A DNA stretch of 64,000 nucleotides from Eledone cirrhosa (taxonomy: Eukaryota): positions 285,386,001 through 285,450,000 of the forward strand of contig OZ024740.1 of NCBI GenBank assembly GCA_964016885.1, written 5' to 3'. Position numbers and translations under genes: made by a program. The notes under the pieces were generated by a model. That model was not told where the DNA came from. It saw only the letters and a list, made by a program, of their open reading frames with translations, and did no database searches. This document shows positions 5,666-64,000 of this stretch, one piece after another (within the stretch, counting starts at the first letter, position 1; each line of letters begins with the position of its first letter).

Positions 5666-6721
5666 CCCATTAGCATTTAAACCGGCTGTATCTGACCAGA
5701 ACTCTCTCACCTATTTCTGTTCAAACCGACTGTAACTGGTCGCTAATATTGATGTTAAGGTATTGTTCTCAAAATAAATAACATAAAATCTCATAGATTC
5801 AATATTATGAGAGATAATTATGTGAGATACAATAGTATACAGGGTGCGGACAATATCTGTTCTAGGAAAAAATATCACAGTAGTTTTATTTTTTAAGATA
5901 TATTTATCAAACTTGGGTCAGTTTGTCTTCATGACTTGTTCTTTCGATCTCACTCGATAAACCCGCCATTGGCTTTGATGACGGTCTCAAGGCGGTTACA
6001 GGCCTTCGTCACTGTCTTAGGCCCCTAAAGGCACTTGTGATCCTGGCCTTCAGATCGTCTTTCATATTGCAGCTAGATCTGTTGGTGTCTCGTTCCACTG
6101 TGCCCCACACAAAGAAGTCGAGGGGGTTGCAGTCAGGCGAGCTGGGAGGCCAGATGTCAGGTGAAGTGTGGTCGACGACAGCCAGGCTTGGGTCTTTCGG
6201 CTGGTATGGCAGGGCGCTGAGTCTTGCTGCCACACACACGTACAGCCTACCTGCAGCTACCTGGTTGATCCAGGGCTTTACTACCTCGCTCAGAACACGG
6301 ATGTAGCCATCAGTGTTCAGCTTGAAGCCCTCAGGGAAGAAGTGAGGTGGCATGACGTCAACTTGACTGCTGACGACACCTAAGACCAATGTTGTCGCTG
6401 GAAACTTTGTCTGCATGACTCTGGGCACGTCTTTGGATGAGACACCATTCTCCTGCTGACGCTGAGAAAGTCTGAAATTTCCTTATTTGTCCTCTCGGCG
6501 CGGATTCCAAGAAGAAATCCGTGTCTCTTCCACAAATTTGGAGGTTCAAAATTATTCATAATCAATTATTCTGAAAATAAATAATGGAAATATAGTCACT
6601 GTTTTTATGAAGACAAGAGTGACAACGGAAGTAAAAAAAAAATTACATAAAATTAGCAGTTGAAAATTGCGAACAGATGTTGTCTGCACCCTGTATATAG
6701 AGTAATGAAAATACTAAAGGG
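5666..6721. mobile_element. TTAA-type (piggyBac-like) MITE interrupted by a maT element
   Basis: CCCATTAGCATTTA...TACTAAAGGG-TTAA ends. The two halves match the intact ~215-bp copies elsewhere in the window. Confidence 0.8.
5840..6693 (-). mobile_element. Internally deleted Tc1/mariner-superfamily DNA transposon, DD37D (maT) type, copy 1
   Basis: 23-bp TIRs CAGGGTGCGGACAATATCTGTTC / GAACAGATGTTGTCTGCACCCTG (2 mismatches) with TA on both sides. Transposase remnant WPPSSPDCNPLDFFVWG. Confidence 0.9.
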
Positions 6722-9784: not shown

Positions 9785-9849
9785 ATTGGATATATTTACT
9801 GTTTCTGGCTATATTGAGGTGTTTTGGTGGTCTCATTCATGGCAGGCCT

Positions 9850-10911
9850 TTGAGAAAATCGTGGGAGTGTTGTTTCATAGAACTTGAAAAGGCATATGAC
9901 CACGTTTCATGGGAACTTTTGTGGAAGGTTCTGTAGGAGTATGGGATTGATGGATGAACCACCCAACTAAATGGTGCTAAGCTAAAACCATTTAATGTGG
10001 GTGTTGGACTCCTCCAAGGGTGTGTACTCTCACCTCTTCAGAGTTGACATGCGCAACTGGGTTGGAAATGGTATTGAGACTGGTGGGTGTAAGTTCAGTT
10101 GGCTGCAATTTGTGGACGGCACGGTACTTTTTAACTCACTAGAAGGTGATCATCGACATGCACTTGATAGGTTTGCTGCTGAATGCTGCACGGTAGGAAT
10201 GAAAATTATTGCTGTGGTGACTGAAACACTCGTCCTCTCAAGGAAGCTTGCGCATTGCACTTTACATGTGAGTAGAGTTCCACTGAAGCAGGTGGAGAAG
10301 TTGAAGTATCTCGGGGCTGTGTTCACGAGAGATGGAAGCCAGGAGGCTGAATTAAGTGCAAGAATTGCAAGATCTAATGCAATAATATGCCAGCTTCAAC
10401 ATTCAGTAATTAGAAGAAGCGAGGTAGGTTTAAAAGCCAAACTCGCTAGCTTCAATTTGGTATTTGTGCTAACTCTTACCTATGGTCATGAATCTTGGGT
10501 AATGACCGAAAGAATACAACTGCAAATACAAGCCGCTGAAATGGGGTTCCTCTGAAGGGTCTCTAGGGTAATGTTGCTCAATAAAGTGCATTGGTCAGAT
10601 ATTAGAGAGTCACTCCAGGTAGAGCCACTACTTCTCCGAATTGAGAGACCACAGCTTTGATATTACAGGCATGTGGTTAGAATGCTTCAGGAAAGAATTG
10701 CTGGACAGATGTTATGCACAAAACCAACTGGCAGGAAATCAAGGGGTAGACCCTGAGCAAGGTAGTTGGATAGCATCCATAAAATCAACTGGTCACGCTT
10801 GGGGATCCAGCTAGATCAATTGGAGACGGTTGCTTCTGACAGGACCTGCTGGACAGCGTGCTTAAGGACCTTGTCCCCACAACCCTCCCAGGAATAAGTG
10901 GATGAAGAAGA
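9850..10911 (+). mobile_element. 5'-truncated, decayed RTE-clade LINE, family 2 (no zinc-finger insert, GAA tail)
   Basis: LEKAYDHV, QGCVLSP, KYLG, LTYGHESW and YYRHVVRM motifs with stops and frameshifts. Ends GATGAAGAAGAA. Confidence 0.85.
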
Positions 10912-11222
10912 AAAAATACATAAAATTTTATTGGTTTTTAACTAGTCTATAATAGAAATGTTGCCATCAAGGAGGATGACTAATTCTCTGTTTTACACCT
11001 TAGAAGTTCATATATTGAATGAAAATATCGAAATCTCAAAAGTATTTTCATAAATTCTCTTTTTTTTTTACATAACATGTTTCTTAATTTAGATAGAAAA
11101 TATATGAAACTATACAAGTAATGATTGTAATTATTAGATTTATTCATGTCTGAGGTGACAGTTATTACAATCATTCCTTTGATGAAATTTCTTTATAAAT
11201 AGAGAAATTTTATTTATTTATT

Positions 11223-11985
11223 CATCATCATCATCATCGTTTAACGTCCATATTCCACGCTTGCATGAGTTTGGACGGGAGTTTTCCCACTTGAGGCAAG
11301 AGTGGTTGTCTTGCTCGCATAGGACTGTCTGGCGGGTTTTCTACGGCTGGATGCCCTTCCTAACACCAACCACATTTACAGTGTGGAACTGGGAGGTTTT
11401 TACCGTGTTACCTACACGGCCACATTACAGCGTGGACTGTGTGTTTTTTTGTCGTGACACCTACACGACCTCATTTGTTTCGGCCTGGATGTTGTGGCAC
11501 CAACATAACTTTACATTGAAAGGGGTAGTGGGACGGGGGTATATTTTGTTAGAGGTGCCTACTGACTGTAGTAGGTTTTACTTTGTATTTAGGTAAGGCG
11601 GGTCTTCTCTATTACTTTGTAGCGCCAAAGATCTCGGTCCAGTGACATTGTCTTGGAGAGGTGTAAGTGTGTGAGGTCGGAATTTATCAAGTCGTCCCAG
11701 GTTTTTCTGGGTCTGCCTACTCCGTGGCTACCGTCTATTTTTATTGCCCTGCACTTTTTTATACAGCTGTCGTCTTTCATGCGCATCACGTGACCATACC
11801 AACGTAGCCTTCTCTCGAGTAAACAACATCCGATCCCTCTTATTTCTAATTTTTCCCTTAGTTCGTTTATGCTTTGCCGTTCATGTATATTACTATTACA
11901 CATCCAGCGGAGTATGCAAGCTTCGTTCCTCTCTAGTCTGCGTATATCCTCTGCACACAATGTCCAGGTTTCACTGCCATGGCAA
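11223..11985 (-). mobile_element. RTE-clade LINE family 1, 3' fragment with long 3'UTR and (ATG)n tail
   Basis: HGSETW...LRWMC...RRLRWYGHVMRM...GRPRKTW. (CAT)n at 11223. Confidence 0.9.
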
Positions 11986-12320: not shown

Positions 12321-12671
12321 ACACAGAAGCGGGTAGCACACACATCTAGGACCACATACAACACATAAGCAGGTAATACACACATCTAGGACCACATGCA
12401 ACGCATAAGGAGGTAGCACACACACATCTAGGAGCACATAAAACACACAGGCAGGTAATACATACAACACAGAAGCAGGTAATACAAACATCTAGGACTA
12501 CATACAACACATAATCAGGTAATACAAACATCTAGGACCACATACAACACAATCAGGTAATACACACATCTAGGACCATATACAACACACAAGCAGGTAA
12601 TACATACAGCTGGGACCATATGCAACACACAGGCAGGTAATACATACATCTAGGACCACATACAACACACA
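12321..12671. repeat. Minisatellite, ~40-bp unit (ACACATAAGCAGGTAATACACACATCTAGGACCACATACA), about 9 copies
   Basis: Unit starts at 12321, 12361 and 12401, then continues with small indels. Confidence 0.9.
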
Positions 12672-14373
12672 TTGTTTCATGTGCTACGGATGATGCAAGA
12701 GCAATGGTCGGCCAACATAAGGGCTTCGTCACTCTTCTGAAGAGAGAAAATCTATCTGTATTTGCTGTTCATTATGTCATTCATCAACAACACTTGGCTG
12801 CGAAGAAATTCAGCAAGCCTCTGAGCAAGTCCTTGCAGGTGGCCATTGATGTCATCAATTTTATCAAACACCATTCCCTCAATGAACGAATTTTCCAGCA
12901 ACTGTGCCAAGACAATGACGAAGAATTCGTCAAGTTGCTCCTTCATACTGAAGTGAGGTGGCTTTCAAAGAGCAAGTGCTTTACTCACTTCTTTGAACTG
13001 TTCGACTCTATCATTGAGTTTCTGCGAGGACGCAACACAGAACTGTACAAGAAAACCCTCGATGTGAGGCAAGACTGCGCTTACCTCACCAACATCTTCG
13101 ATAAATGCAATAGCGTCATTTTGGCTTTGCAGGGGAAGAAGATCACCTTGCTTAAAGCAAGGAAAAAAAACATTTCTGGCCAAATTGAATGTCATCGAAA
13201 GGAATCTTTGTTGACGGGAATTCTATAATTTTCCTAGTGTCGCCAATGTTCAAAACATTGTAAGCGATGACCAACTCCAAATTTATACCACTCACCTCCG
13301 TGAGCTACAAGACAACATGAGAGAACGGTTTGTCGACCTTTTGCCGATGGACATCCCAATGTGGATAGCAGATGCTTTCATAGCTAATGTCGACGATTTG
13401 GACGTTAAATTTCAGGAAGAATTCATTGAACTTCAAGCAGATGACACAATCAAAATTAGATTTCCCAAAATAGGTGAACCCCTTTTTGCAAGAGGAAATT
13501 CAGCATTGATTTCCACACCTACATGCAGAGGCTAAGAGATTTGCTCTGCCTTTTCCAAGCTCATACTTAGTCGAGAGGAAGTTTGGTGTTGTTTCCAGAC
13601 TGCACAGTAAAGCTTGCAACCGCTACAATGTAATTACACGTGGAGATCTCTGGCTACATCTTAGGAAAATTGAGCCTTACGTCAAAGAGTTAGCTAGACT
13701 CCATGAAGCTCAAGGGTCCAATTGAAATGAGTCAAAGTTAAAGTAAGTTGATTTATACGAAAACTTGAATATGCTATTGTTACAAAGCAAACTAACAATT
13801 TTTTTTATTTGTAGTTGTAGTCTGACTGGACTGGAAACCATCTACTACAATTCAATTACTCATTTGTTATATATATTTTACCATTTATTAATAAATATAC
13901 CCTCCCGCGTGGTCATGAAAACCCTCTTCCGTGGTCTCTAAGCTCACAAAGCAGGGGGACATCAAGTTTGATATCAACATTTATTCTGTCCGTTTCATTA
14001 AAGGGAAAATTGGAAAGCTTTGAAATGATATAATTGCCACTTTCTTCCAGATAAGAGCACTCTTGGGATAGACAGAGTTACTCTTGTATAAATGTTCAAA
14101 ATAGCTGGTATTGCTTGGTGGGAATATAACAAATTCAACTGGTCCTTATTCATAAAAAAGAACATTTATGTTCCTTTTTTTGAAATTTATATATTTCCTT
14201 TCAAGGAATGTATTTATACTCTCAGCTGCCTGAATATTGTTAATAAATTTTTTAGTAATCTACTGATATCAAAATCAGTAGTATATTGAAAAATGGAAAA
14301 ATAGGGTAGGGGGTGTTTCGTGATTTCAAGGGACAAAAGGGGGCGTTTGGCCTAAATGGATTGAGAACCTGTG
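12672..14373 (+). mobile_element. hAT transposon remnant (Buster/Charlie-like transposase, frameshifted) with probable right terminus
   Basis: CATDDARAMVG, HYVIHQQHL, LLLHTEVRWLS and FPSSYLVERKF...RGDL motifs, stop near 13725. TTGAGAACCTGTG followed by ATCTAG at about 14361-14379 resembles a Charlie-type terminus and target. Confidence 0.85.
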
Positions 14374-16558: not shown

Positions 16559-16994
16559 TCATCATCATCATACGTCCGCTTTTCCCTGCTTGCAAGGGTG
16601 GGACGGGTCCTATTCAGCACAGCATCTCTTCACTTGTCACGGTCCTTCGTCATCTCTACCGTGAGCTTCAGCAATCTGAGGTCTGCTCTCACCACCTCCA
16701 CCCATGTTTTTCGTGTCTTCCTCAACTACATCTTCCTTCAACTGGCATTTCTTGGCACTTCTTCACCCATCGGTCATCCTCCATGCACATCACAATGGCC
16801 ATACCATCGCAGTCTCCTCTCCCGCAAACTACAATTTATCCCTCTCAGACAGTTTCTTTCTCAACACATCCATGCTCGGTCGTTCACGCACATTGACATT
16901 GCACATCCAATGGAGCATGCTTGCCTCATTTCTCTCCAGCCGTCGCATATCCTCTGCAGTTGCTGCCCATGTCTCACTACCATGCAGCATCGAA
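16559..16994 (-). mobile_element. RTE family 1, 3' fragment (short-UTR subfamily)
   Basis: MLHGSETWAATAEDMRRLERNEASMLHWMC. (CAT)n tail at the left end. Confidence 0.85.
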
Positions 16995-17235
16995 GTGTCA
17001 CGACAAAATGCACCCAGTCCACACTGTAAAGTGGTTGTGTAGGAGACACGGCAAAAAGCACCCAGCACACACTGTAAATGTGGTTGGCGTTGGGAAGGGC
17101 CTCCAGCTGTAGAAAACCGTCCAGAGGCAGTCCTATATGAGTGAGACATGGTCACCCGACTCAACTTGCCTCAAATGGGACAAACCCATCTAAGCCATGC
17201 TAACATAGAAGATAGACGTTAAACGATGATGATGA
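16995..17235 (+). mobile_element. RTE family 1, long 3'UTR fragment with (ATG)n tail
   Basis: Reverse complement of the UTR seen at 11223-11460 and 62828-63070. Ends GACGTTAAACGATGATGATG. Confidence 0.8.
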
Positions 17236-21071: not shown

Positions 21072-21828
21072 CATCATCTTCATCGTTTAACGTCCATCTT
21101 CCACGCTAGCATGGGTTAGACGGGAGTTGTGCTACTTGAGGCAAGGTTGGTCGAGTGACGGTGTCTCGCTCATATAGGACTATCTGGCAGGTTTTCTACT
21201 TCCTAACACCAACCACATTTATAGTGTGGAACTGGGAACTTTTTACCGTGTTACCTACACGGCCACATTTTTTTTTTTTTTGTGACACCTACACGATCTC
21301 AATCTCATTATCTCATTTATTTGGACTGGATGTTCTGGTACCAACTTTACAGAGAGAGGGTGGTGTTAGTGGGAGGGTAGTGGATTGGAGTGTATATTTG
21401 GTTAGGAGGTGCCTACTGACTGTAGGTTTCGCTTTGTACATAGGCAAGGCGGGTCTTCTGTATTACTGCATAGCGCCAAAGATCTTGGTCCAGTGACATT
21501 GTCTTAGAGAGGTGTAAGTGTGTAAGGTCGGAATTTATCAGATCGTCCTAGGTTTTTCTGGGTCTACCTACTCCGTAACTACCATCAATTTTGATCGCCC
21601 TGCACTTTTTTATGCAGCTGTCGTCTTTCATGCGCATCATGTGGCCATACCAACGTAGTCTTCTCTCCAGTAAACAGCATCTGATCCTTCTTATTCCTAA
21701 TTTCTCACTTAGTTCATTTATGCTTTGCCGTTCACGTATATTACTATTACACATCCAACGGAGCATGCATGCTTCATTCTTTTCCAGTCTACGCAGGTCC
21801 TCTGCACGTAATACCCAGTCTGCGTAGC
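21072..21828 (-). mobile_element. RTE family 1, 3' fragment with long UTR
   Basis: MLRWMCNSNIRERQSINEL...RRLRWYGHMMRM. Closely related to 11223-11985. Confidence 0.9.
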
Positions 21829-23642: not shown

Positions 23643-24457
23643 TCATCATCATCATCATCATCATCAACGTTTAACGTCCGTGTTCCACGCTTGCATGGGT
23701 TTGGACGGGGGTAGTCCCACTTGAGGCAAGAGTGATTGTCTTGCTCGCATCGGACTGTCTGGCAGGTTTTCTACAGTTGGATGCCCTTCCTAACACCAAC
23801 CACATTTACAGTGTGGGTCTGGGAGGTTTTTACCGTGTTGCCTACACGGCCACATTACAGCGTGGACTGTGTGTTTTTTTGTCGTGACACCTACACGTAT
23901 ATATATATATCATCACCACCACCGTTTAATGTCAATTTTTTCACGCTGGCATGGGTTATTTGAGGTGTCCTTTTGTGGGCAATGCTAGGTCAGGTGACCA
24001 TGTCTTGCTCATACAGAACTGATTCTGGCTTGGTTTCTGCAGCTGGATGCCCTTCCTAATGCCAACCTCATTTACAGTGAGTACTGGGTGCCTTTTGTCA
24101 TGATGCCTACATAACCACTTTACAGTGTGGGCTGGACACTTTTGCCAAACACGACCACTTTACAGCGTGGGCCAGGTGCTTTTTTGTCATGACACCTACA
24201 TGACCACTTTACAGTGTGGGTTGGGCGCTTTTTGTCGTGTTGCCATCACGGCCACTTTACAGTGTGGGCTGGAGGCTTCACTGGATGTATGTGTGGGAGT
24301 GGGTAGGGTGTAATTGAGTGGTGTGGTGCATATTATACATATGCTTCATCTTCGGCCTGTGCCTGTGGGAAGTCAGGTTTTCTGTATTACTGCATAACAC
24401 CAAAGATCCCGGTCATGTCATCCCCTTTGAGAGGTGCAATTGGGCATGGTCAGCTTT
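23643..24457 (-). mobile_element. Two stacked RTE family 1 3'UTR fragments (about 23643-23897 and 23911-24457)
   Basis: Each begins with a (CAT)n or CATCACCACC tail next to a TA run and carries ACCACTTTACAGTGTGGG subrepeats. Confidence 0.8.
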
Positions 24458-24458
24458 T

Positions 24459-25647
24459 CATCATCATCATCATACGTCCGCTTTTCCCTGCTTGCAAGGG
24501 TTGGACGGGTCCTATTCAGCACAGCATCTCTCCACTTATTACGGTCCTTCGTTATCTCCTTGGTGAGTTTCAGCGATCTGAGGTCTGCTCTCACCACCTC
24601 TGCCCATGTTTTTTGTGATCTACCTCTACTGTGTCTTCCTTCTACTGGGATTTCTTGGCACTTCTTTACCCAGTGGTCATTCTCCATGCGTATCACATGT
24701 CCATACCATCTCTCCCTTCTCTCCTGCACACCACAACTTATCCCTCTTATACCCAGTTTCTTTCTCAACTTGGTCGTTCACGCACATTGACATTGCACAT
24801 CCAACGGAGCATACTTGATTCATTTCTCTCCAGCCATTGCATATCCTCTGCAGTTGCTGCCCATGTCTCACTACCATGCAGCTTCGCGCATCTCACACAG
24901 GCATCATGTAATTGTCCTTTCGTACGCAGGGAGAAACCCTTCTTTGTCAACAGAGGAAGCAGCTCCCTAAACTTCTTCCAACCCGTCCTTATTCTAGATA
25001 CTATGGCCTCGAAACACCCCCTCCCATGCTAATCTGATCACCTAGGTACCGGAAGCTATCAACCACTTCTATAGAACCCACCTGCATTGGAAAAATGTGT
25101 CTATCACAGCGATTACTACTGCCAACTACATAGTTTTCCCTACCTGTTAGTTTGCCTGCTATCCCACTACATCTCTTGTGCACCCAAGATCTGCATTGCG
25201 TACATTTTATGGAATCAGAGTATTGTCTTGTCTTCTACTTATCAACACTTTTGTCTTAGCTATGTTCACTCTCAGACCTCTTGATTCCAACTGCTGTTTC
25301 CATAGCCAGAATTTATTCTCTAGCTCCTCTACTGATTCTGCTATAAGAACCAGATCATCAGCATAGAGAAGTTCCCATGGGCATCCAGTTTTAAACTCCT
25401 CTGTTATGGCTTGGAGAACTATAATGAATAAGAGTGGGCTGAGGACCGAACACTGATGAACTCCTACTTGTATCTGGAATTCCTCATTAAACTTCATTCC
25501 TACTCTCACTTTACTGACAGCACCCCTGTACATAGCTTGCACTGTCCTCACAAGCCATTCCTCTACACCTAGTTTCCTTAGGGCCACCAGATGACAGATC
25601 GGGGTACCCTATCAAAGGCCTTCTCTAGGTCAACAAAAGCTAAGTAT
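24459..25647 (-). mobile_element. RTE family 1, 5'-truncated decayed copy covering the RT and C-terminus
   Basis: FVDLEKAFDRVP, GVHQCSVLSPLLF, ELLYADDLVL, VDSFRYLGD, HGSETW and WYGHVIRM motifs. Confidence 0.9.
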
Positions 25648-25790
25648 AGTGGCGATACGAATAATAATAAACAAACTTATCTCAACGGATTTTCGAAATT
25701 ATGTTATATATATAACATCCGGAATAAGAAATGTGTGTGGGCAGTGGAGGATATAACTAAAGTTCAAACATTTTCATCATAATTTAAACA

Positions 25791-35885: not shown

Positions 35886-37355
35886 ATAATGATAATGAAA
35901 TTGTGTAAAGTGCTCAGGTGCACTACAACTCGTCAATATAGTACATAGAATAATACACAAATGTCAGGGAAGTACATGTGTGTATGTGTTAGCTGTAGTG
36001 TTGGCGGATCTTGGGAAGCATGGAGGCCTTAAAGGATGCAGTGTCGCGACAGCTAACAACTGATGCAGGTAGTTTGTTCCATGCTTCAGCAACTCTGAGC
36101 GTGAAAAAATGTTTCCGAAAGTCATGGGAACTGTGCTGTTTTCTTACTTTGTGGGCATGTCCACGTGTGTTAGACACATGGAAATCAGAAAGGTACTCAG
36201 GGTTGTTGGCAACATGGTTAACAATTTTGTGGGTGTTTACCAAGTCAGTTGCCAGGCGTCGGAGCTTCAATGAATCCATGCCCAGGGAAGCAAGGCGCTC
36301 AGGGTATGGTAGGTGTCTGATGGAGGGTATTCGCTTGGTTGCACATCTCTGAACAGTTTCCAGATGGTCAATGTCCTGAGCAAGATAGGGGTTCCAGACT
36401 GGTGATGCAAATTCTAAGTGTGGTCGCACCATAGCTGTATACAGCCTTAAATAGATATCTGGAGAGCGGCTGACAAAGGTCTTGCTGAGTGATGCTAAGA
36501 CACCCTCGGCCCTCTTGACAATTTTAGAGATGTGCCTCGTCCAACGCAAATCGCTGCTGACCGTAATGCCCAGGTCACGTTCAAAGGAAGACTTCTTGAT
36601 ATTAGTGCTGTGGAGGGAGTATGTGGACGCTGGGTTTTTACTCCCAAAATGCATGGTGGTGCACTTGTCCACAGCTAGCTTGAGTTGCCAGTCTGAGATT
36701 CATTGTTGCATTGTGTCCAGGTCAGACTGCAAGCAAGATCTATAGTGTTCAGGATCTGTCCTTTTTATCTCAAAGTACAGCTTGATGTCGTCTGCGTACT
36801 TTAGTACTGTGGCATTCCTTAAGTTGGCATCTATGTCATTAATATATGCCACAAACAAAAGGGGGCCAAGAACAGATCCTTGTGGTACACCAGATGACAT
36901 CTCATATGGTGAAGAATGCTGTCCCAGAACCGTGACTACCTCTCTTCGACTGAGAATGAAGGACTTCAACCAGTTAAAAAGATCATCCTTCACACCCATT
37001 GCAGAGAGTTTTGCCATAAGCCTTTTGTGTGGCACAGAATTGAAGGCCTTCGCAAAGTCAAGGTAAACAACATCCACCCATGAGCCGCCATCAGTGATCC
37101 GGGTGTTGTCCTCAAGAAACTCTATAAGTTGATCACAGCAGCTGGAGTTGGGGATAAATCCAAATTGCGAGGGCCGGATAAGACTGTGAGAGCTCCAGAA
37201 GTTCCAAAGTGTTTCTCTGACACAGGATTCCATCAGTTTGGCGATGCAACTAGTAAGACTGACTGGACGATAGTTCACAGGTGATGTGCGGTCACCCTTT
37301 TTGAACAGAGGAATGACACTGGCAGTTTTCCACTGTTCTGGAGTAGCACTGTTGT
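35885..37355 (-). mobile_element. CR1-type LINE, 5'-truncated, RT nearly intact
   Basis: IPLFKKGD...NYRPVSLTS, QFGF, VYLDFAKAFNSVPH, SGVPQGSVLGPLLF, YADDIKL, ERDLGI, VRPHLEFASPVWNP and NTRGH motifs. One in-frame stop at 36700-36702 separates the two ORF-track pieces. Confidence 0.92.
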
Positions 37356-37478
37356 TCAGACAGATAACAGATTAAAATTTAAGCAAAGAATCGCTGCTTT
37401 CACCCTTAACGGGATCTTCTGAAACAAAAACAAAATCAATCTGTGAATGCAGAAGTAAATATTTCGAAAAACGTTACA

Positions 37479-41063: not shown

Positions 41064-43544
41064 TAGAGTCAGGATTGTGGGAGAGCAGAGCCCATTGTAA
41101 TTTTAGTAGAAAAGACAAAATGTCTTTATTTTAAATGAATGCCAAGTACTTATTTTATCAACCCTGTATAAAGGAAAGGCAAATCAACGTGGTTTAAGTA
41201 TAGAGTAAGATTCAAAAGGTTTAAATGGTAACAAAACATGTGTAATTGATGCAACAACATTGCCTCTTCAAGTGCATATCATTGCTTATTCACATAAACT
41301 TTCTTTTAAACTATAGCAACTCTAAAACAAAGCTTAATTTAAAGGATTGAGTAAGTTGAAAAAGCATTGGCATACAAAATAATGTACAAGTAGTATGGAT
41401 AGTGTTGCTTGGTAGTTGATAATACATTCAAAGGCCACTTAATTGACAATTTGCTTAGTTTTGTTACTTTATTTTGTTTATAAGAGTGGAGTTACTCTAT
41501 AAACAAATGAAGTACATTTGTTTTTAAAGTCCTTAAACCATCAAATGATTTAAGTATTGACATATTTATGGATTCAAATAGACTAGGATTGCACAACAAA
41601 AACAAAAAGCAAAAAATTCTAAAGCAAGGAAAAAGAAAAACAAATGCAACAGCAACAATAACAACACTAACAGCCAAAGGTACTACTCACCCTCATCATC
41701 TTCACTATCAGATAAAAGAGCACTAGTGGTTTGATTGAGGAAGTAATAAACAACAAAAATATATACATCAAGGATGAGGGGTAAATAATTTATACACAAA
41801 ACATCACAACAAATAATTCTCATTCAGACGCTCGTGTCTATATGGTACTCAGAAAAAATACTTACATGACATAAGAATACTTCAGGCAAATATGAAGTGG
41901 AGAACACATATGTGGCTTATGGTGTATATAACCCAATCACCATTGTGCCTTGCTCTGGTTTTTGTTTAATGAGATTAGAGCACCTGCTCTGTCACTTGCA
42001 GAAAGGTTGTTCTTTGTCTGCCATGCCTTTCCATAGCTAATGTTTTTGATGGAGCTGCTGCAGTCCGGTATTAAGTGAAGACCAAGAGTGGATGGACATT
42101 AGCTGGCACCCACATTCCTCTACAAGTCGGGCAATGTCACTGCTGGAACTCCATATTAGCTCTTTATAGCAGATTAGTAGTGATGATGTGATGGCATTCT
42201 CAGGAAAACTGAGCATTAATGAAAATCAAATCCTTGCTCTGTCAGTGCTAGCAGGAAGGATCATTGCCAGGTTGAGAAGTTCTACCAACATGAAAGGGCC
42301 ATCATCTGAGTCTGTCCAAGACATGGACCAAAACAAGGAAAGATTTTTCTGCATGAGCTTGTTAAGTGTTTAAGTACTGCTGTCTTATGGATTTGTATCA
42401 AATAACTGTTGTCGGGAGGGATTCAGCTATTGATGTATCACTCAAGTAGATCCTCCTTCCCCCAACACAGATGAACACAACTGAAAGGAACGAGGTCTGG
42501 CACTTGGCTCTTTAACAAAGCACACATTTTTCTCTTGATCTCCTTCTAGTGCTCTTTTTTCTCTTACATTCCCACTGCAGCATGAAGAGATTGGGGTTTA
42601 GCTTTAGAGTTAGGGTTAAACAGAGAAGGGCAATTTGAAGAGGGAGGGGACAAAAAACAACAACAAAAAAAAAACTGAAATTGTAAAAATGTTATTTGTT
42701 CTTGGGTAATGTCATGTAGCCATCTAGTTATCCTAACCAACAACACTGCCTTCATTTAATGTTCGTTTTTTCCCTGCGAGGAGGGATTAGATGGGTTGTC
42801 AGACTGAACCAGCACTCGAGCAGAGCTTCTTGCTTATATGTATTCCTGCAATCTCTCAAGTATTCAAATGGGCTAGGGGCATGTGTGTCTCTCTTACATA
42901 TGTTTGTGCACTCTACCTAGTGCATTTTATTGTGACACCAACACTAGAGAAATTGTCATGTCTTAAAAAGGGTCCTCCTGATCTTTTGTTTGGAAAATTT
43001 TCTAAGCTGGATGCCCTTTCTATCACCACCACTTTACAGAGATTATTTGGTGCATTTATCATGTAGATACTAGGAATTTTGTTGTGCAATTGACACAACT
43101 GAACAGTCCTCTTTATACTTTTTTGGCATGCTTTCTATAGCTGGACACCTTTCATATTGCTTACCTCTTTACAGAGTGTACTGGGTGCATTTTCGTGGCA
43201 CCAGTACTAGAGAGATGTTGGTCATTGATTCAACTAAAGACCTATCAAGAGTGTGTGTGTGTGTGTGGGGGGGGTATGATAAGCTAAGGGTGAGAAGGAT
43301 GAAGATCATGGATGATAGCATGGTGAGTACTGTGATGATAGCAGCTACATATGACACACTGGTCATAAGAGGTTATGACTGGTATGTCAGGATTTTGGGT
43401 GTGGAGGTAGTTATGGTGGGAATAACTACTAGGGTGTTGTAGTGGAGGGGCCATGAATGGAATGAGGTAGAGTGAAGTTGAAGATAGCTACTAAGAAGTG
43501 AAGGGGCATGTAGATGAGTCGGGTAATATTTTATGCTGGCAGGC

Positions 43545-43910
43545 AGGTCTTCTTTAGTACAGTGTGTCACTAATTCTTACAGTCCTTTGCCTATTCCATT
43601 GTGAGGTTCAGCTTCTTAAGGTCAGTCTTCCCTACCACATCCCATATCCTCCCAGGTTTATCTCTTCCATGAGTCCTCTCCACTGATATTGCTCTGCACT
43701 TCTTTATACAGCTGTCATTTTCCATTCACATCGCATGTCCATACCAAATCAGCTTTCTTTCTTGTGTGCTACATCCAATTCCTCTTTTGCCAAATTCTTC
43801 TCTTAGTTCACATATGCTACACCATTCACACACATTAACATTGCACACCCATCAAAGAATACTCACTTCACTTCTTTCTACCATTCACAAGTCTTCTGCA
43901 GTCAAAATCC
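43545..43910 (-). mobile_element. RTE family 1, decayed 3' fragment
   Basis: Remnants of the WYGHxMRM and MCNV motifs. Homologous to 63260-63500. Confidence 0.65.
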
Positions 43911-45302
43911 AAAATATAATTTCCATCTGGTTCAGTCTTTAAGTATGGTTAGCTCCCTGTATGTTTTCTTAAGGCTGACTCTTTCTATATCAGTCAATAT
44001 GTACAATAAAACCTGTTGGAGGAGTAGATTTGGGGGAATTATTGACTGTTGAATATTATAAATATATGCATATATATAGGTACAGGGATAGCTGTGTGAG
44101 AACTTGAGATAGACTTATTTATTGTAGCATTGCGTTGACCATTGCTTTATTAGTGCAGATACTGAAGCTCATTGTATGCGCGCGCGCCTGTGTTTGTGTC
44201 TTTTTTTGTTGTTCTTTGTTTATTATCAGCAGAAACTGTGTAAGTTACCTCCATATATATATCATAGGTTCTTTAATAATTTGACAAATAGAGATCATTA
44301 AAACACACCAAATTGAAATAAGTATTATAGTCTTTAACAGTGCTGTAATCAATAAGCATACAAAATAGAGCCAGCTTTGGAGAAGAATAACCGTTTTGGT
44401 GGATTTTGTGTGTATGTGTGTGCAGGGTAGAATTATATGCATATCTAATAGCTGTATCAGTAGAGGTCCTGATAGGCAAGCAGATTTTGCAAGTTGGAAG
44501 AATACATGTTGGCAAGAAACCAGAGGCCTGATATAAAGTTTATGAAGCAAGAGAGCTTGCAAACTACGAAACATTCAAAGCATTATTTTTGTATTTCTTG
44601 ATGGTTATTTTACAGGAGTTATTTATGTTGTTCATTCCCAAGACTACTCTGATAGAGTAGACCTATAATCATGGGCATCTTGTGTTTTTTCAGGAATAAT
44701 GTTCTCTTCTTTCTTGTGAGAAAACAACAGAAGTACTTAGCTAAGAATAAGCTCCTTTATTTGTCAATCCAAAAGAGGGTTTTCACAGGCTTCCACACTC
44801 TTGAATCTGGGAATTGTTAAGGAAGCTAGGGATAGATGAATGACTTGCAAGTGTCATACAAGCCATATATAGAGTTGTAGTCTGCAAGGTCAGCAAATTT
44901 AGTGAGCTGGAGGTGTTTACCAATTCCCTTTTAGTCCTTCAGACTAGAAAGAGATGAAGTGAGCACACTCTGTTGGATATATAGTGTTTGTGTACATAAA
45001 GAAGTAGATAGAACTTGTGGAAGAGGAAGACAGGATAAAATGTTACAGACTGATCTTAGGATCATTTCATATTTATTAATAGTTAGTTTTTAATGCTGTA
45101 TGTATAACACAAACACCAGCTTTACCATAAAGTAGTGGGAGGTAATGCAACAGCTGTTGTTAGTGGATATGAAGGTCATCAAATCAAGAAGCAATGTTTT
45201 CTTCTTCTTTCAATCATTAGTCCAATGTATCATAAAACATTTACAATGCTATGGTAATGGTAATAATAAGCTATTGAATGACTCATTGAGTTATCAATTC
45301 AC

Positions 45303-45719: not shown

Positions 45720-45899
45720 TGAAAATAGTATAAAACATGGAGATAAAACAACGATTATTTTTATGTCATCAGACCATGAACATTGAATTTTCCAGTTGGG
45801 TTTTAACAATTCTGAAAATATTTTATATGAAAATCTTAATTATTCAGAATCAGTGAAAAAGTTTGAGGAACAAATATTTTTACAAAACAACCTACTGCG

Positions 45900-47803
45900 A
45901 ACTACTGATGAGATTTGTGGCTGGTGCTTTGTTCCAGCCAGGCAGAGGGTGACCTGGTGGTGGTACAGCACAGTAGATAGTCATTAAGGTCAAGAAACAG
46001 GTGTGGAAAGACTGGAAAATGGGGATAGCAGAGACCTGTATCATTAGCTAAGAGAGAAGCTATGTAGGTGATAAGTATACATAACATAGAAAAAGGTTGA
46101 AAGAACAAACATTGCCAATGTCATGCAATGGGAGGATCATAGACATGAAGTGTTCTGCATTGCAAGACAGTGTGTCAGTGTGAATTGAGATGTTGTTGGG
46201 GAAAAGTATGTTTGAAATGGTACCACTGCAAAAGAAAAAGACTGGAAAATGTTACTATGAGATGCTGATGAATGTGAAGAATGAGTGGGAGGAAGAGAGA
46301 CTAACGCCAGCCAACCCAGCAGAGGACCCAGCTATTGAAATTGACAGTTATAGGTTTGAAGAAGCAATCAAAGAGATGAAGAATAGTAAAGCTGCAGGAC
46401 CATCAAAGATAGTTGCCAAGATGCTAAAAGCACTGAGATAAGTAGGAGCTGAACTAATCACCTGCATAGTCAATCAGGATGGCGTTATACTCAATGACTA
46501 GTGATGCTGTAGAAAGGAACAACTACAGAGGAATAAAACTAATGGACCAAGTTATGAAAGTGACAGAAAGCGTTCTAGCTCAGCTAATTAGAGAAAGAGT
46601 CAAATTAGACGAGATACAGCTTGGCTTTATACCTAATAAAAATACTATAGATGCCCTCTTCCTAGTGAGATAACTACAAGAAAAGTTCTTAGCCAAGAAT
46701 AAGCTGCTATATTTAGCTTTTGTCGATCTAGAAAAGTCCTTTGACAGAGTTCCTCGATTTGTCATCTGGTGGTCTTTAAGGAAATTAGGTGAAGAATGGC
46801 TGCTGAGAGCAGTGCAAGCCATTTACAGAGGAGGTAGGAGTTCATCAGTGTTTGGTCCTCAGCCCACTTCTGTTCATTATGGTTTTCCAGGCCATAACAG
46901 GAGCTTAAGACTGGTTATCCATGGGAACTCCTTTATGCTGATGATCTGCTTCTTAGAGCTGAATCCATAGAAGAACTAGAGAATAAGTTCCAACAGTAGA
47001 AACCAAATTTAAAATCAAAATATCTAAGAGAAAGAAGATTAGACCCTGATTCCACCAGGGAAGTGGATAAATTTGATATGCAGAAAAGGAGTAAATATAA
47101 ATTCTATCTGATATATACAATGCAAATCTTGAGTACACAAGAAGTATAGTTGGATTGCAAGCATACTTACTGGAAAGGAAGACTTTGTATGTAATAGATG
47201 CACAGGGGTAATTGCTAGTAACAGGGGCAGAGATATAAACCTTTTCCAATCACATGAAGGATCCATAGAAGTGGTTGATATCTTTTGCTACCTAGGTGAT
47301 CTAATTAGCAGTGGAAGTGGTTGGTCCGAGAGCAGAGTAGTTATAATAAGGATAAGATGGAAGAAGTTTAGAGACCTATTTCCTTTGTTTACACCAAGAT
47401 GTTTCTCTCTATGAATGAAATGACAGCTCTGTGTAAAGTGTGATACTGCATTGTAGTGAAACATGGGCAGTGACCACAGGAGAGAAATGAAGTAAGCATG
47501 CATTGATGGATGTACATTGTAAATGTGAGAGAATGACAGCTTGGATGAACTGAAAATAACTGGATTTTAGAGGAATCAGAAGTAGTGTGCAAGAGAGAAG
47601 ATTGCATTGGTATCGATATGTGATGTGCCTGGATGATGATTGCTGGGTGAAGAAGTGTGAAGAAATTCTAGTAGAAGAGCTAGGCAGTGCTGAGAGTTGA
47701 TTTTGAATCACTGAAACTCACAGAGAAGATGAAAAAGGAACATGACAAGTGGAGAGATGGTGTATTGCAAGCATGGAAAAATGGACATAAAAACAATGAT
47801 GAT
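45900..47803 (+). mobile_element. RTE family 1, long decayed copy
   Basis: KAAGPS, NYRGIKLM, AFVDLEKSFDRVP, ELLYADDL, Cys-rich insert, YLGD and an ATG-type tail, with many stops. Confidence 0.85.
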
Positions 47804-51799: not shown

Positions 51800-53275
51800 C
51801 ACATAGCACAGAAAAAAACAAAAAAACAATGTTTGCCAATGTTCTACAATTTGAGGTTCAGAGAATTGTGGTGTTCCAGATTACAAGACTGGGTATTAGT
51901 ATAAATCAAGATGTTGTTGGGGGAAAAGTGTGTAGGAATGACTCTGGTACACTTAGCCTCACTGATGCACAGAAGAAAGAAACATAGAAATGTTATTAGA
52001 GGTTACTAAATGTGGAGAAAGTATAGGATAAGGGATTATCTCCAGGAGACGAAACAAAGGACCAAGCTATTGAGATCACAAAATATATGGTTATGGATGT
52101 TATTAAGGATATGGAGAAAGGAAAAGCTGTTGGAATAGTCACAGTGATGCTGAAATATCTAGTGAGGTAAGGCTTTAGTCAACCAGATAATACATGGTGT
52201 TCTACCTGCTTAATGTCATAATCATGCCATTAACTGCTACAATGGAAAAGGAAATGCACTAGAAAGAAGCATCAATAGACCAAGTTTTAGCTCAGTTGCT
52301 TAGGAATAGAATTAGATTAGATGAGATGCAATTTGGATGTGTCCAAGCCAGAATACAGCTTATGCCTTCCTTTTAGTGAGACAACTGCAAAAGAAGTTTC
52401 CAGCATTCACTAACTTAGAGAAATCCTTTAACAGAATGGTACACTCAACTAGGCATAAATGAATGGCTTGTTAGAGCAGTATAGGTCATGTTTAGAGAAT
52501 CTGCCAGTAAAGTGAGTGTTGGTATGTATCAAAGTTCAGTCATCACTCTCCTTCTGTTTGTTATAGTGTCCATTATTGGTTGTTCATGTTAACTGCTGTA
52601 TACTGACGACCTATGACCTATTTTTTATAGCCCGATCTGTCGAAGAAATTCTAGTTGTGGAAACAAAACTTAGTATCAAAAAGACTCTTCATCAGGAAAA
52701 TGGCTATGTTCGATATGCAGAAAAAGAGTAGGCAGGAATTCTATATGGTATACTCAATGTGAAATATGGGTTCACAAAAAGTGTAATGGGATTACAGGCA
52801 GGTTAATAAACAAAAACGTATGTGGCACATGCATAAGGATAATTGGTAGTAAGATCACCAGTAAAATAGACTTTTTCTACTCCAGAGAAGGTTCAATAGA
52901 AGTAGTTGACAACTTTTGTTACTTAGGTTTTCTAATTAGCAGTAGATGAGGTTGCTCTGTATATCTTAGTAACTAGAATAAAAATACAGTGGGAAAAAAA
53001 TGTAAGGAGTGGCTACCTTTGTTAGCAATGAAGGTATTCTTTTTCTAAACAAATGGTAGATTGCATATGATGTCTCTATACATAGTACAATGCCGCATGA
53101 TAGAGAGGTATGGGCACTAAATGATGAGGATATGCAAAGGCTAGAAAGTAATGAATCATAATCATGCCATTAACTGCTACAATGGAAAAGGGATGTGTAA
53201 TGTTAGCATACATGAATGAAGAAGTACAGTTAAGTTCAGAGAAAAACTGTGTATAAGAAGACTCATGAATGTACA
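51800..53275 (+). mobile_element. RTE family 1, highly decayed copy
   Basis: Collinear with 45900-47803: LEKSF, LLYTDDL, Cys-rich insert and VDNFCYLG. Confidence 0.75.
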
Positions 53276-53524: not shown

Positions 53525-54000
53525 TATAGGGAGCCATCCAGTCAATTGAGGGAATCTATTTCACATGTGCCCTTGATGCATATTTCTCCTGTACATTTGC
53601 TGCATACAAAACTGCATTCTTTGTAAATCTGCCTGTAATCCAACTACATCTTTTGTACATCCATAGATTGTATTGTGTGCACCTTATGCAATTTCTGTCT
53701 ACTCCTTTTTAACATATAGACTAAAGTCAATGACACCATCCTATATGATTTGATTGATTTTGTGTCTGCCTAGTTCATAACCTACCATGCTGGATTTTTT
53801 AGCATCTTAACAGCTACACCAAATGGTCCAGCTGCCTTCCCTATCTTCAAATCCTGATTCACTTTGTCTATCATACTGCTGTCAACTTTTGTGGCTGCAT
53901 CCTCAATTGGGTCTGTTTGTAGCTGGCCACCACTATCTCATTTATTCTCTTCTTTCAACAGTCTTTTGTAATATGACTTCCATGCTTATTTCTTGATATC
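53525..54000 (-). mobile_element. RTE family 1, decayed internally deleted fragment
   Basis: KAAGPFG remnant and the Cys-rich insert on the minus strand. Confidence 0.55.
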
Positions 54001-62827: not shown

Positions 62828-64000
62828 ATCATCATCATCATCATCATCATCACCGTTTTACGTCCGTTCTTCCACGCTAGCATGGGTTAGACGGGTTGTC
62901 CTGTTGTGGGCAGTGTCTGGTCGGCTGACCATGCCTTGCTCATACAGGAACTGATTTGGCTTGATTTCTACAGCTGGATGCCCTTCCTAACACCAACCTC
63001 ATTTACAGTGAGTGCTGGGTGCTTTTTCGTGGCGCCTACACGTCCACTTTACAGTATGGGCTGGGTGCTTTTTTGCCGTGGCACCTCCACGACGACCTTG
63101 CAGTGGGGGGTGTGGGGGTATATTGTCTATATGCTTCAGCTTGTACCCATGGGAGGTTGGGTACTCTGTATTACTGTGTGACGCCAGAGGTCACAGTCGT
63201 GTGTCATCGCCTTTGAGAGGTGTAATTGGGTAAGGCCGGCTTTTACACCTCAACCCAGGTCATCTTGGGTCTCCCCACTCCGCGACTTCTAGTGCTCTGC
63301 ACCTTTTTATGCAGCTGTCATCCTTCATACGCATCACATGTCCATACCAAATCAACTGCCTCTCCTGCACACAGCATTTGATTCCTCTTATGCTCAGTCT
63401 CTCTCTCAATTCATTTATGCTTTGTCGTTCGCGTATATTACTATTACACATCCATCGGAGCATGCAGGCTTTGTTTCTCTCTAATCTACGTAAGTCTTCC
63501 ACCTTCAGCGCCCAGGTCTCACTACCATGCAACATCGCTGTTCGGATACACGCATCATACAGTCTGCCTTTCATTTTGAGGGAGAAGCCTTTTGCAGCTA
63601 GCAGTGGTAGTAGTTCCCTAAACTTCTTCCATCCCGTTCTTACCCTAGTTATTGTACTTTCTGAACACCCACCTCCGCTGCTAATTCGGTCACCTAGGTA
63701 GCCGAAGCTGTCTACTGTTTCTACAGAACCCTCCCAGAGATTGGTGCATGTGGAGCCTACATTCTTAATTAAGCTTCCTGAGATCCGGCTACATCTCTTG
63801 TGTACCCATTGTTTGCATTTGGGGCAGAGAATGGAGTTCCTACCTACACTTTTCCTACATACTGAGCAAGGCCATTTCCCTGAGGGGATCTGGGTTCTGT
63901 CTTCTCGTCTACTTACAAGGACCTTAGTCTTTGTCATGTTGACTTGAGACCCTTTCTTTCTAGTCCCTGCTTCCAAGTTTGGAATTTCTTCTCTAGTTCT
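62828..64000 (-). mobile_element. Relatively young RTE family 1 copy running off the window edge, with PHD-like finger in the RT region
   Basis: ORF 63260-63976: KTKVL-[Cys-rich insert]-VDSFGYLGD...HGSETW...WYGHVMRM, followed by the long UTR and (ATG)n tail. Confidence 0.92.

Follow-up and report, generated by a model that had tools for sequence, protein, structure and literature searches.

A conserved PHD-type zinc finger between reverse transcriptase motifs 6 and 7 in an RTE-type lineage of non-LTR retrotransposons

Background

The architecture of LINE ORF2 proteins is regarded as highly constrained. PHD-bearing elements of the CR1/L2 group were reportedly described by Kapitonov and Jurka in 2003. 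In such elements, the PHD finger is found in ORF1 or at the N-terminus of ORF2 or of a single ORF; a role of LINE PHD fingers in chromatin targeting had been proposed but not put to the test when the field was reviewed in 2014 (Metcalfe and Casane, PMC4120745). Among LTR elements, the Chlamydomonas Gypsy-7a_cRei carries a PHD in its Gypsy polyprotein (PMC9940879). The octopus element RTE-2_OV was described with a C2H2 finger, and a PHD is not mentioned in the accessible parts of that paper, including 8 of its 12 supplements (PMC9115989). In the site-specific element R2Bm, a contact loop in motif 6a (residues 672-677) reads an upstream target motif, and its deletion blocks nicking; the loop was termed R2-specific (PMC10499050). 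Motif 6a of vertebrate R2 is wedged into the upstream DNA (bioRxiv 10.1101/2024.11.11.623112), and a palm 6a insertion is present in L1 ORF2p (PMC10830420).

Comparison of the retrotransposon lineage described here, which carries a zinc finger in its reverse transcriptase (RT), with these systems revealed several characteristic features: (i) with the RTE clade (BovB/RTE type, including RTE-2_OV) it shares a single ORF of about 1040 residues combining an APE endonuclease and an RT, a microsatellite tail and frequent 5' truncation; (ii) like the CR1/L2 PHD elements it is a non-LTR element with a PHD, but it belongs to a different clade and its PHD lies inside the RT catalytic domain; (iii) like chromoviruses and PHD-bearing LTR elements it has a chromatin-reader fold fused into a replication or integration polyprotein, whereas those elements are integrase-based and their reader is a separate polyprotein domain, not known inside the RT palm; and (iv) like insertion 6a of R2Bm, R2Tg and R2Pm, the finger separates RT motifs 6 and 7 and thereby occupies the segment with which R2 touches its target DNA upstream. 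In contrast to 6a, a short loop reading bases of a fixed rDNA site, the finger is predicted to fold as a two-zinc domain, and its element lacks site specificity and has a different endonuclease.

A full-text literature search, with Repbase, Dfam and most subscription papers outside its scope, yielded no description of a PHD inside an RTE RT. The main texts of PMC10294476, PMC11203168 and PMC10830420 contain no relevant mention of PHD, and the accessible parts of PMC3849965, PMC12247875 and PMC7617806 hold nothing relevant on such an arrangement. The architecture is apparently undescribed, PHD fingers in non-LTR elements as such being already known. Because it is so common, a curator's note on it may well exist, at chances that we put somewhat short of even.

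The finger and its element in the analysed window

The analysed window is a stretch of 64,000 nucleotides of the Eledone cirrhosa genome (assembly GCA_964016885.1, contig OZ024740.1, positions 285,386,001 to 285,450,000). At its right edge it holds an RTE-type copy (Table 1) that is 92% identical to a young full-length copy elsewhere in the genome. The first-pass annotation had placed a C4HC3 finger of this copy at 63746-63870, between two RT motifs. The coordinates stand, the strand is corrected to minus, and the flanking KTKVL and FxYLGD motifs bear out the insertion between RT motifs 6 and 7, inside the RT. The ligand codons start at 63868, 63859, 63826 and 63817 (Cys), 63802 (His), and 63793 and 63748 (Cys); the eighth ligand, the last Cys, was removed by a 16-codon in-frame deletion, visible as a tblastn gap against an intact copy. 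The frame holding the finger is open over 246 residues and runs off the window edge. The finger scores 25 bits on the Pfam PHD profile (cut-off 24), and a strict pattern of six ligands plus Trp has one match in the window and none in 100 shuffles.

The same annotation had listed four homologous inserts and a second RTE family, near 10215-10320, with only a short linker at the insert site. All four inserts occur at the places given and at the same RT position, and all four are decayed; the short linker of the second family is likewise present. In the window no single copy has all eight ligands; the C4HC3 pattern that had been composed from the five copies is complete in individual intact copies at other genomic locations.

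Table 1. Features of the RTE-like copies in the window
Feature	Position	Strand	Remarks
PHD-less RTE-like control family	9840..10915	+	Short motif 6-7 linker; (GAA)n-type tail
Older copy, same lineage	24358..25652	-	Insert remnant 25010-25216, frameshifted, keeps C3-C4-W-H-C6
Older decayed copy	45877..47676	+	Insert remnant ~47065-47205, little left beyond last Cx2C
Older decayed copy	51832..53258	+	Insert ~52700-52835, 7/8 ligands (C3 to Tyr)
Heavily decayed copy	53616..53994	-	Insert remnant 53616-53720
RTE-type non-LTR copy, 5'-truncated, frameshifted	62834..64000	-	Extends ~574 bp beyond the right edge of the window
3' microsatellite tail (GAT)8	62828..62851	-	
ORF thumb and C-terminal region	63142..63688	-	Frameshifts near 63284 and 63246
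RT motif 7 (FxYLGD)	63689..63706	-	Downstream insert boundary
PHD finger remnant	63746..63874	-	7/8 ligands; aromatic at Cys1-2, Trp at His-2
RT motif 6 end (KTKVL)	63917..63931	-	Upstream insert boundary

Other mobile elements were observed in the window. Related subfamilies within the PHD lineage are represented by short 3' fragments at 11225-11981, 21449-21817, 16588-17005 and 43537-43911, all on the minus strand; the fragment ending near 11225 has a (GAT)n tail like that of the PHD lineage. A LINE of another, CR1/L2-like kind occupies 35989-37371 (-); it matches RVT_1, and its ORF is split by one stop. Two remnants at 6009-6482 (-) and 12641-13228 (+) gave no match in a Pfam scan; by their motifs we take them to be remnants of Tc1/mariner-like and hAT-like DNA transposons, respectively.

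Intact copies and recent activity in the genome

A protein search of the 3.0 Gb genome produced 268 matches from the 150 scored of 76,298 candidates. At first look, this genome holds 37,938 candidate PHD matches, an abundance that the finger lineage explains. ORFs of 1012-1057 codons were found in several of 20 stretches taken from the genome, and young full-length copies carry the complete C4HC3 finger. An ORF of 1040 residues includes an endonuclease (residues 33-267), RVT_1 (558-762) and a PHD (778-821), the latter with 26.5 bits on Pfam PF00628 at a gathering cut-off of 24. Several copies are 99.3-99.7% identical to the copy with this ORF, and thus the family was recently active. No ORF1 is evident in three full-length copies, where the 1.5 kb preceding the ORF holds stop-free stretches of at most 100-121 codons. 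A single ORF with APE endonuclease and RT, and without evident ORF1, is an RTE-type feature; the RTE label rests on this architecture plus what we take to be a resemblance of the outgroup linkers to those of fish and plant RTEs. Tails of (GAT)2-11 terminate 61 of 69 copies, the majority of which are 5'-truncated. Inspection of 27 young copies for target-site duplications gave mostly none or repeat-derived matches, owing to their (TA)n flanks.

The eighth ligand is intact in 39 of the 69 distinct copies, lost by a deletion in 25 and in another state in five, in a sample biased by a first query that itself bears a deletion. Its absence from so many copies is what would suggest that the finger is carried along neutrally or is an artefact of copy decay. 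We consider this highly improbable, since the deletions are scattered, 19 of 20 copies of the youngest clade are intact at this ligand, and the zinc ligands do not vary among proteins whose RTs share only about 45-60% identity, with a low pN/pS (see below). Mapping the deletion on a 49-copy tree takes eight changes, at least three of them forced by well-supported branches. Together with the state of the youngest clade, this scatter indicates recurrent decay rather than a finger-less active lineage, and a deletion-bearing active subfamily is ruled out. The region of the eighth ligand looks like a hotspot of recurrent in-frame deletions. The most frequent one is bounded by short direct repeats on either side of a small hairpin.

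Two further observations concern the genomic copies. Four full-length copies (L048, L049, L034 and L033) have tandem 5' units, exemplified by 5.2 units of 386 bp with 98% matches at L048:6596-8610; these are possibly promoter monomers, as in rodent L1. On contig C25, more than 20 equal-scoring PHD matches cluster at about 19.3-23.7 Mb, which suggests tandem or segmental amplification.

Predicted fold of the insert

The first-pass annotation had called the insert PHD-like and asked whether it folds as a domain on the RT. Both points are borne out at the level of prediction: the Pfam PHD score is above the cut-off, structural searches are topped by PHD fingers, and the insert is modelled as a PHD fold with an intact RT fold on both sides. 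In detail, an AlphaFold model of RT, PHD and thumb has a pLDDT of 90, with blocks of the insert at about 77-93 except for one loop block at 62. The model aligns with R2 and L1 RTs from end to end (about 400-420 of 492 residues; against 9dou, Z 28.0, rmsd 3.6, 412 aligned), and the predicted RT fold is therefore undisturbed by the insert.

The finger modelled alone has a pLDDT of 72. In a Foldseek search with this model the top rows were PHD fingers (probability ~1.0, E at best 0.007). The VIA structural search gave modest Z values, with a best Z of 6.0 for BPTF (rmsd 5.2, 63 aligned) and a tighter superposition on MLL4 PHD6 (Z 5.0, rmsd 1.9, 52 aligned); all six rows with Z of at least 5 and a domain-naming title were PHD fingers. 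Identities as C1, RING or double zinc ribbon are ruled out, their scores being below the cut-off, those of C1 and RING far below. The finger is predicted to adopt the cross-brace PHD fold.

By family profile, the closest solved fingers are the PHDs of Pygopus (E ~2e-6). The RTE finger shares with them the aromatic-Pro-Cys start, the pocket Val and the Trp divider, but the aspartate of EVND is missing and the finger has a strongly basic character. At about 22-29% identity in structural alignments, the comparison does not establish descent from Pygopus.

Conservation, distribution and origin

Using residues 715-880 as the query, we found 316 homologs among 418 candidates, 120 of which were listed. 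The eight zinc ligands expected for the consensus are invariant in 120/120 listed homologs. Among these proteins, the finger has a mean pairwise identity of 58%, close to that of the RT core (64%) and the thumb (55%), whereas the loop that follows it has 20%. The Pfam PHD tag had already been assigned automatically to 64 of the 120, so the architecture is visible in databases. Few hosts are named, among them Octopus bimaculoides (56% identity) and the catfish Neoarius graeffei. The matches to protein clusters are PHD or RT plus PHD clusters with scant taxonomy. Where the finger is present, the segment between motifs 6 and 7 is 93-116 residues long (measured in 117 of the 120), compared with about 32-39 residues in other RTE-like RTs without it.

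Retention of the finger in this set is biased, because the scored region includes the finger. A repeat search with the RT core alone yielded 150 representatives with a readable linker in 84: 14 with a PHD and 70 with a short linker, many of the latter being near-copies of one family. In this search, the nearest RTs have the finger and more distant RTE-like RTs the short linker; PHD bearers were found down to 45% RT identity. The RTE lineage with the finger, as judged from these sequences, is old and widespread and reaches beyond the family of one genome.

The RT-only tree of 64 rows, with unnamed relatives, combines 36 proteins from the finger-region search with 14 PHD and 14 thinned short representatives. 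It needs two changes of state, and a single change is sufficient in only 22% of bootstrap trees; monophyly of the PHD bearers is not rejected (p-AU 0.51). A single, early gain of the finger is probable, and some lineages may have lost it later. A search for a host donor gene with the PHD only did not find one: it gave 33/35 candidates, most of them RVT_1-annotated and the others short unannotated or PHD-only proteins.

Purifying selection between subfamilies, on which the proposal of a functional insert had been made to depend, is indeed apparent. Uncorrected pN/pS between two genomic subfamilies, computed for one copy versus two with pS near saturation, is 0.17-0.18 in the finger and 0.09-0.14 in the thumb, compared with 0.59-0.74 in the post-finger loop.

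Insertion sites

Copies of the finger lineage are frequently inserted next to TA repeats. At 26/61 3' junctions and 24/55 5' junctions there is a (TA)4 run no more than 30 bp away, against a background of 9% of bins at least 300 bp away and 2.6% in control loci. The PHD-less family has such a run at 3/22 junctions (Fisher p = 0.018 versus the finger lineage); it is a weak control, given its greater age (its copies share about 70% identity at the protein level) and its different tail. (TA)n microsatellites occur on both sides in 17 of the 49 copies of the 69-copy set with both junctions readable. In a published model, the cleavage sites of RTE-related elements are tied to endonuclease preference and to microhomology of the 3' microsatellite tail (PMC6007223). 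The (TA)n bias cannot be credited to the finger, because endonuclease or 3'-tail effects could produce it. No sign of promoter targeting was seen at the junctions of young copies.

Surface, pocket and candidate ligands

The fingers are strongly basic, with a mean net charge of +6.4 (range +1 to +11; 119 of the 120 homologs), about 1.5 acidic residues per finger, and Asp or Glu after Cys3 in only 9/119. Six host PHD fingers of this genome have net charges of -6, -5, -1, 0, +2 and +6; charge alone is indecisive, because one of the six is also at +6. At the same time, the elements of a methyl-lysine pocket are retained in the sequences: the pocket-divider Trp in 118/120 listed homologs and in 20/20 additional proteins, some of them deep-branching; this Trp, two before the His, in combination with an aromatic residue at Cys1-2 in 111/119; and the Val that matches Pygopus EVND in 111/120. 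The position two before Cys1 is occupied by Y in 47, W in 40, F in 17 and H in 10 of the 120.

Roles of the EVND residues in the Pygopus pocket have been described (PMC3851687). The kept Trp, aromatic residue and Val, and the rank of the Pygopus fingers as best PDB PHD matches of the family profile, would agree with a classical reader of H3K4me2/3 that steers insertions to marked, open chromatin. We nevertheless regard this as unlikely. The binding site of typical H3 readers is mainly negative (PMC10124903), and this acidic character is missing here, given the scarcity of acidic residues overall and after Cys3; with net charge as the sequence proxy, a negatively charged groove for A1 and R2 of H3 is not found. 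Moreover, the young copies lie in (TA)n repeats, and promoter targeting is not apparent. A finger that binds DNA or nucleosomes and retains a methyl-lysine pocket would fit the sequences better than a plain histone reader.

Outside the zinc ligands, a GVGxNSI segment is almost invariant, which suggests a conserved binding surface. The rear face of Pygopus fingers binds a cofactor (PMC3851687). Both facts could be accommodated if the finger docks a host protein (a methyl-lysine non-histone, repair or silencing factor) to finish integration or to evade repression, but conservation from cephalopod to fish would demand a very conserved partner, and we consider such docking quite unlikely.

Position relative to R2 motif 6a and proposed function

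In the profile alignment, R2Bm can be followed as far as residue 671, equivalent to profile position 744, and the PHD match begins some eight positions later, at about 752. Thus, the finger occupies the same segment between motifs 6 and 7 as the DNA-contacting 6a loop of R2, and by this analogy we infer that it may face target DNA. A common segment need not mean the same geometry.

The finger is a real, conserved and widespread domain insertion, its predicted fold and its maintenance by selection being well supported, and its function can be proposed as follows. At roughly even chances, it is a target-engagement module that binds DNA or nucleosomal DNA and possibly also methyl-lysine. In this mechanism, (i) the finger would hold chromosomal DNA beside the nick during target-primed reverse transcription, (ii) its basic surface (about +6) would bind target or nucleosomal DNA upstream of the nick, (iii) the Pygopus-like aromatic pocket might in addition weakly read methylated H3K4 or some other methyl-lysine, and (iv) the enzyme would be stabilised on chromatin rather than a sequence being chosen. 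The finger is not essential to the RTE mechanism, because most RTE-like elements transpose without it.

A strongly basic finger in an element with no ORF1 evident in three full-length copies might alternatively bind the element's own RNA or the RNA-cDNA hybrid, and aid RNP assembly or processivity without an ORF1 protein. This seems very unlikely, as it leaves the conserved aromatic pocket unexplained and target DNA is what motif 6a faces in the R2 structures. PHD-less RTEs, too, manage with one ORF.

The target-engagement reading has a bolder form: a polymerase with a chromatin reader grafted in the RT palm, at the target-reading site of R2, that would sense nucleosomal DNA and H3K4 methylation while priming. 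We hold this form to be rather doubtful. If true, it would make the lineage a non-LTR counterpart of chromoviruses and would provide LINE-based gene-writing enzymes with a naturally tolerated site at which targeting domains could be grafted. As it is, tolerance of a folded domain at the motif 6-7 site is useful for the engineering of retrotransposon-based insertion tools, and with a conserved reader domain inside the RT and young intact copies at hand, chromatin reading by LINEs in site choice becomes directly testable.

Related gene models in databases

The finger lineage also explains misnamed gene models in other species. Those of Neoarius graeffei annotated as 'uncharacterized protein slc22a21' are identified by Pfam as ORFs of RT-PHD retrotransposons and are apparently misannotated. 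LINE-like ORFs with a further kind of accessory zinc finger were observed in an endonuclease-RT protein cluster, 78% of whose members carry zf-PARP.
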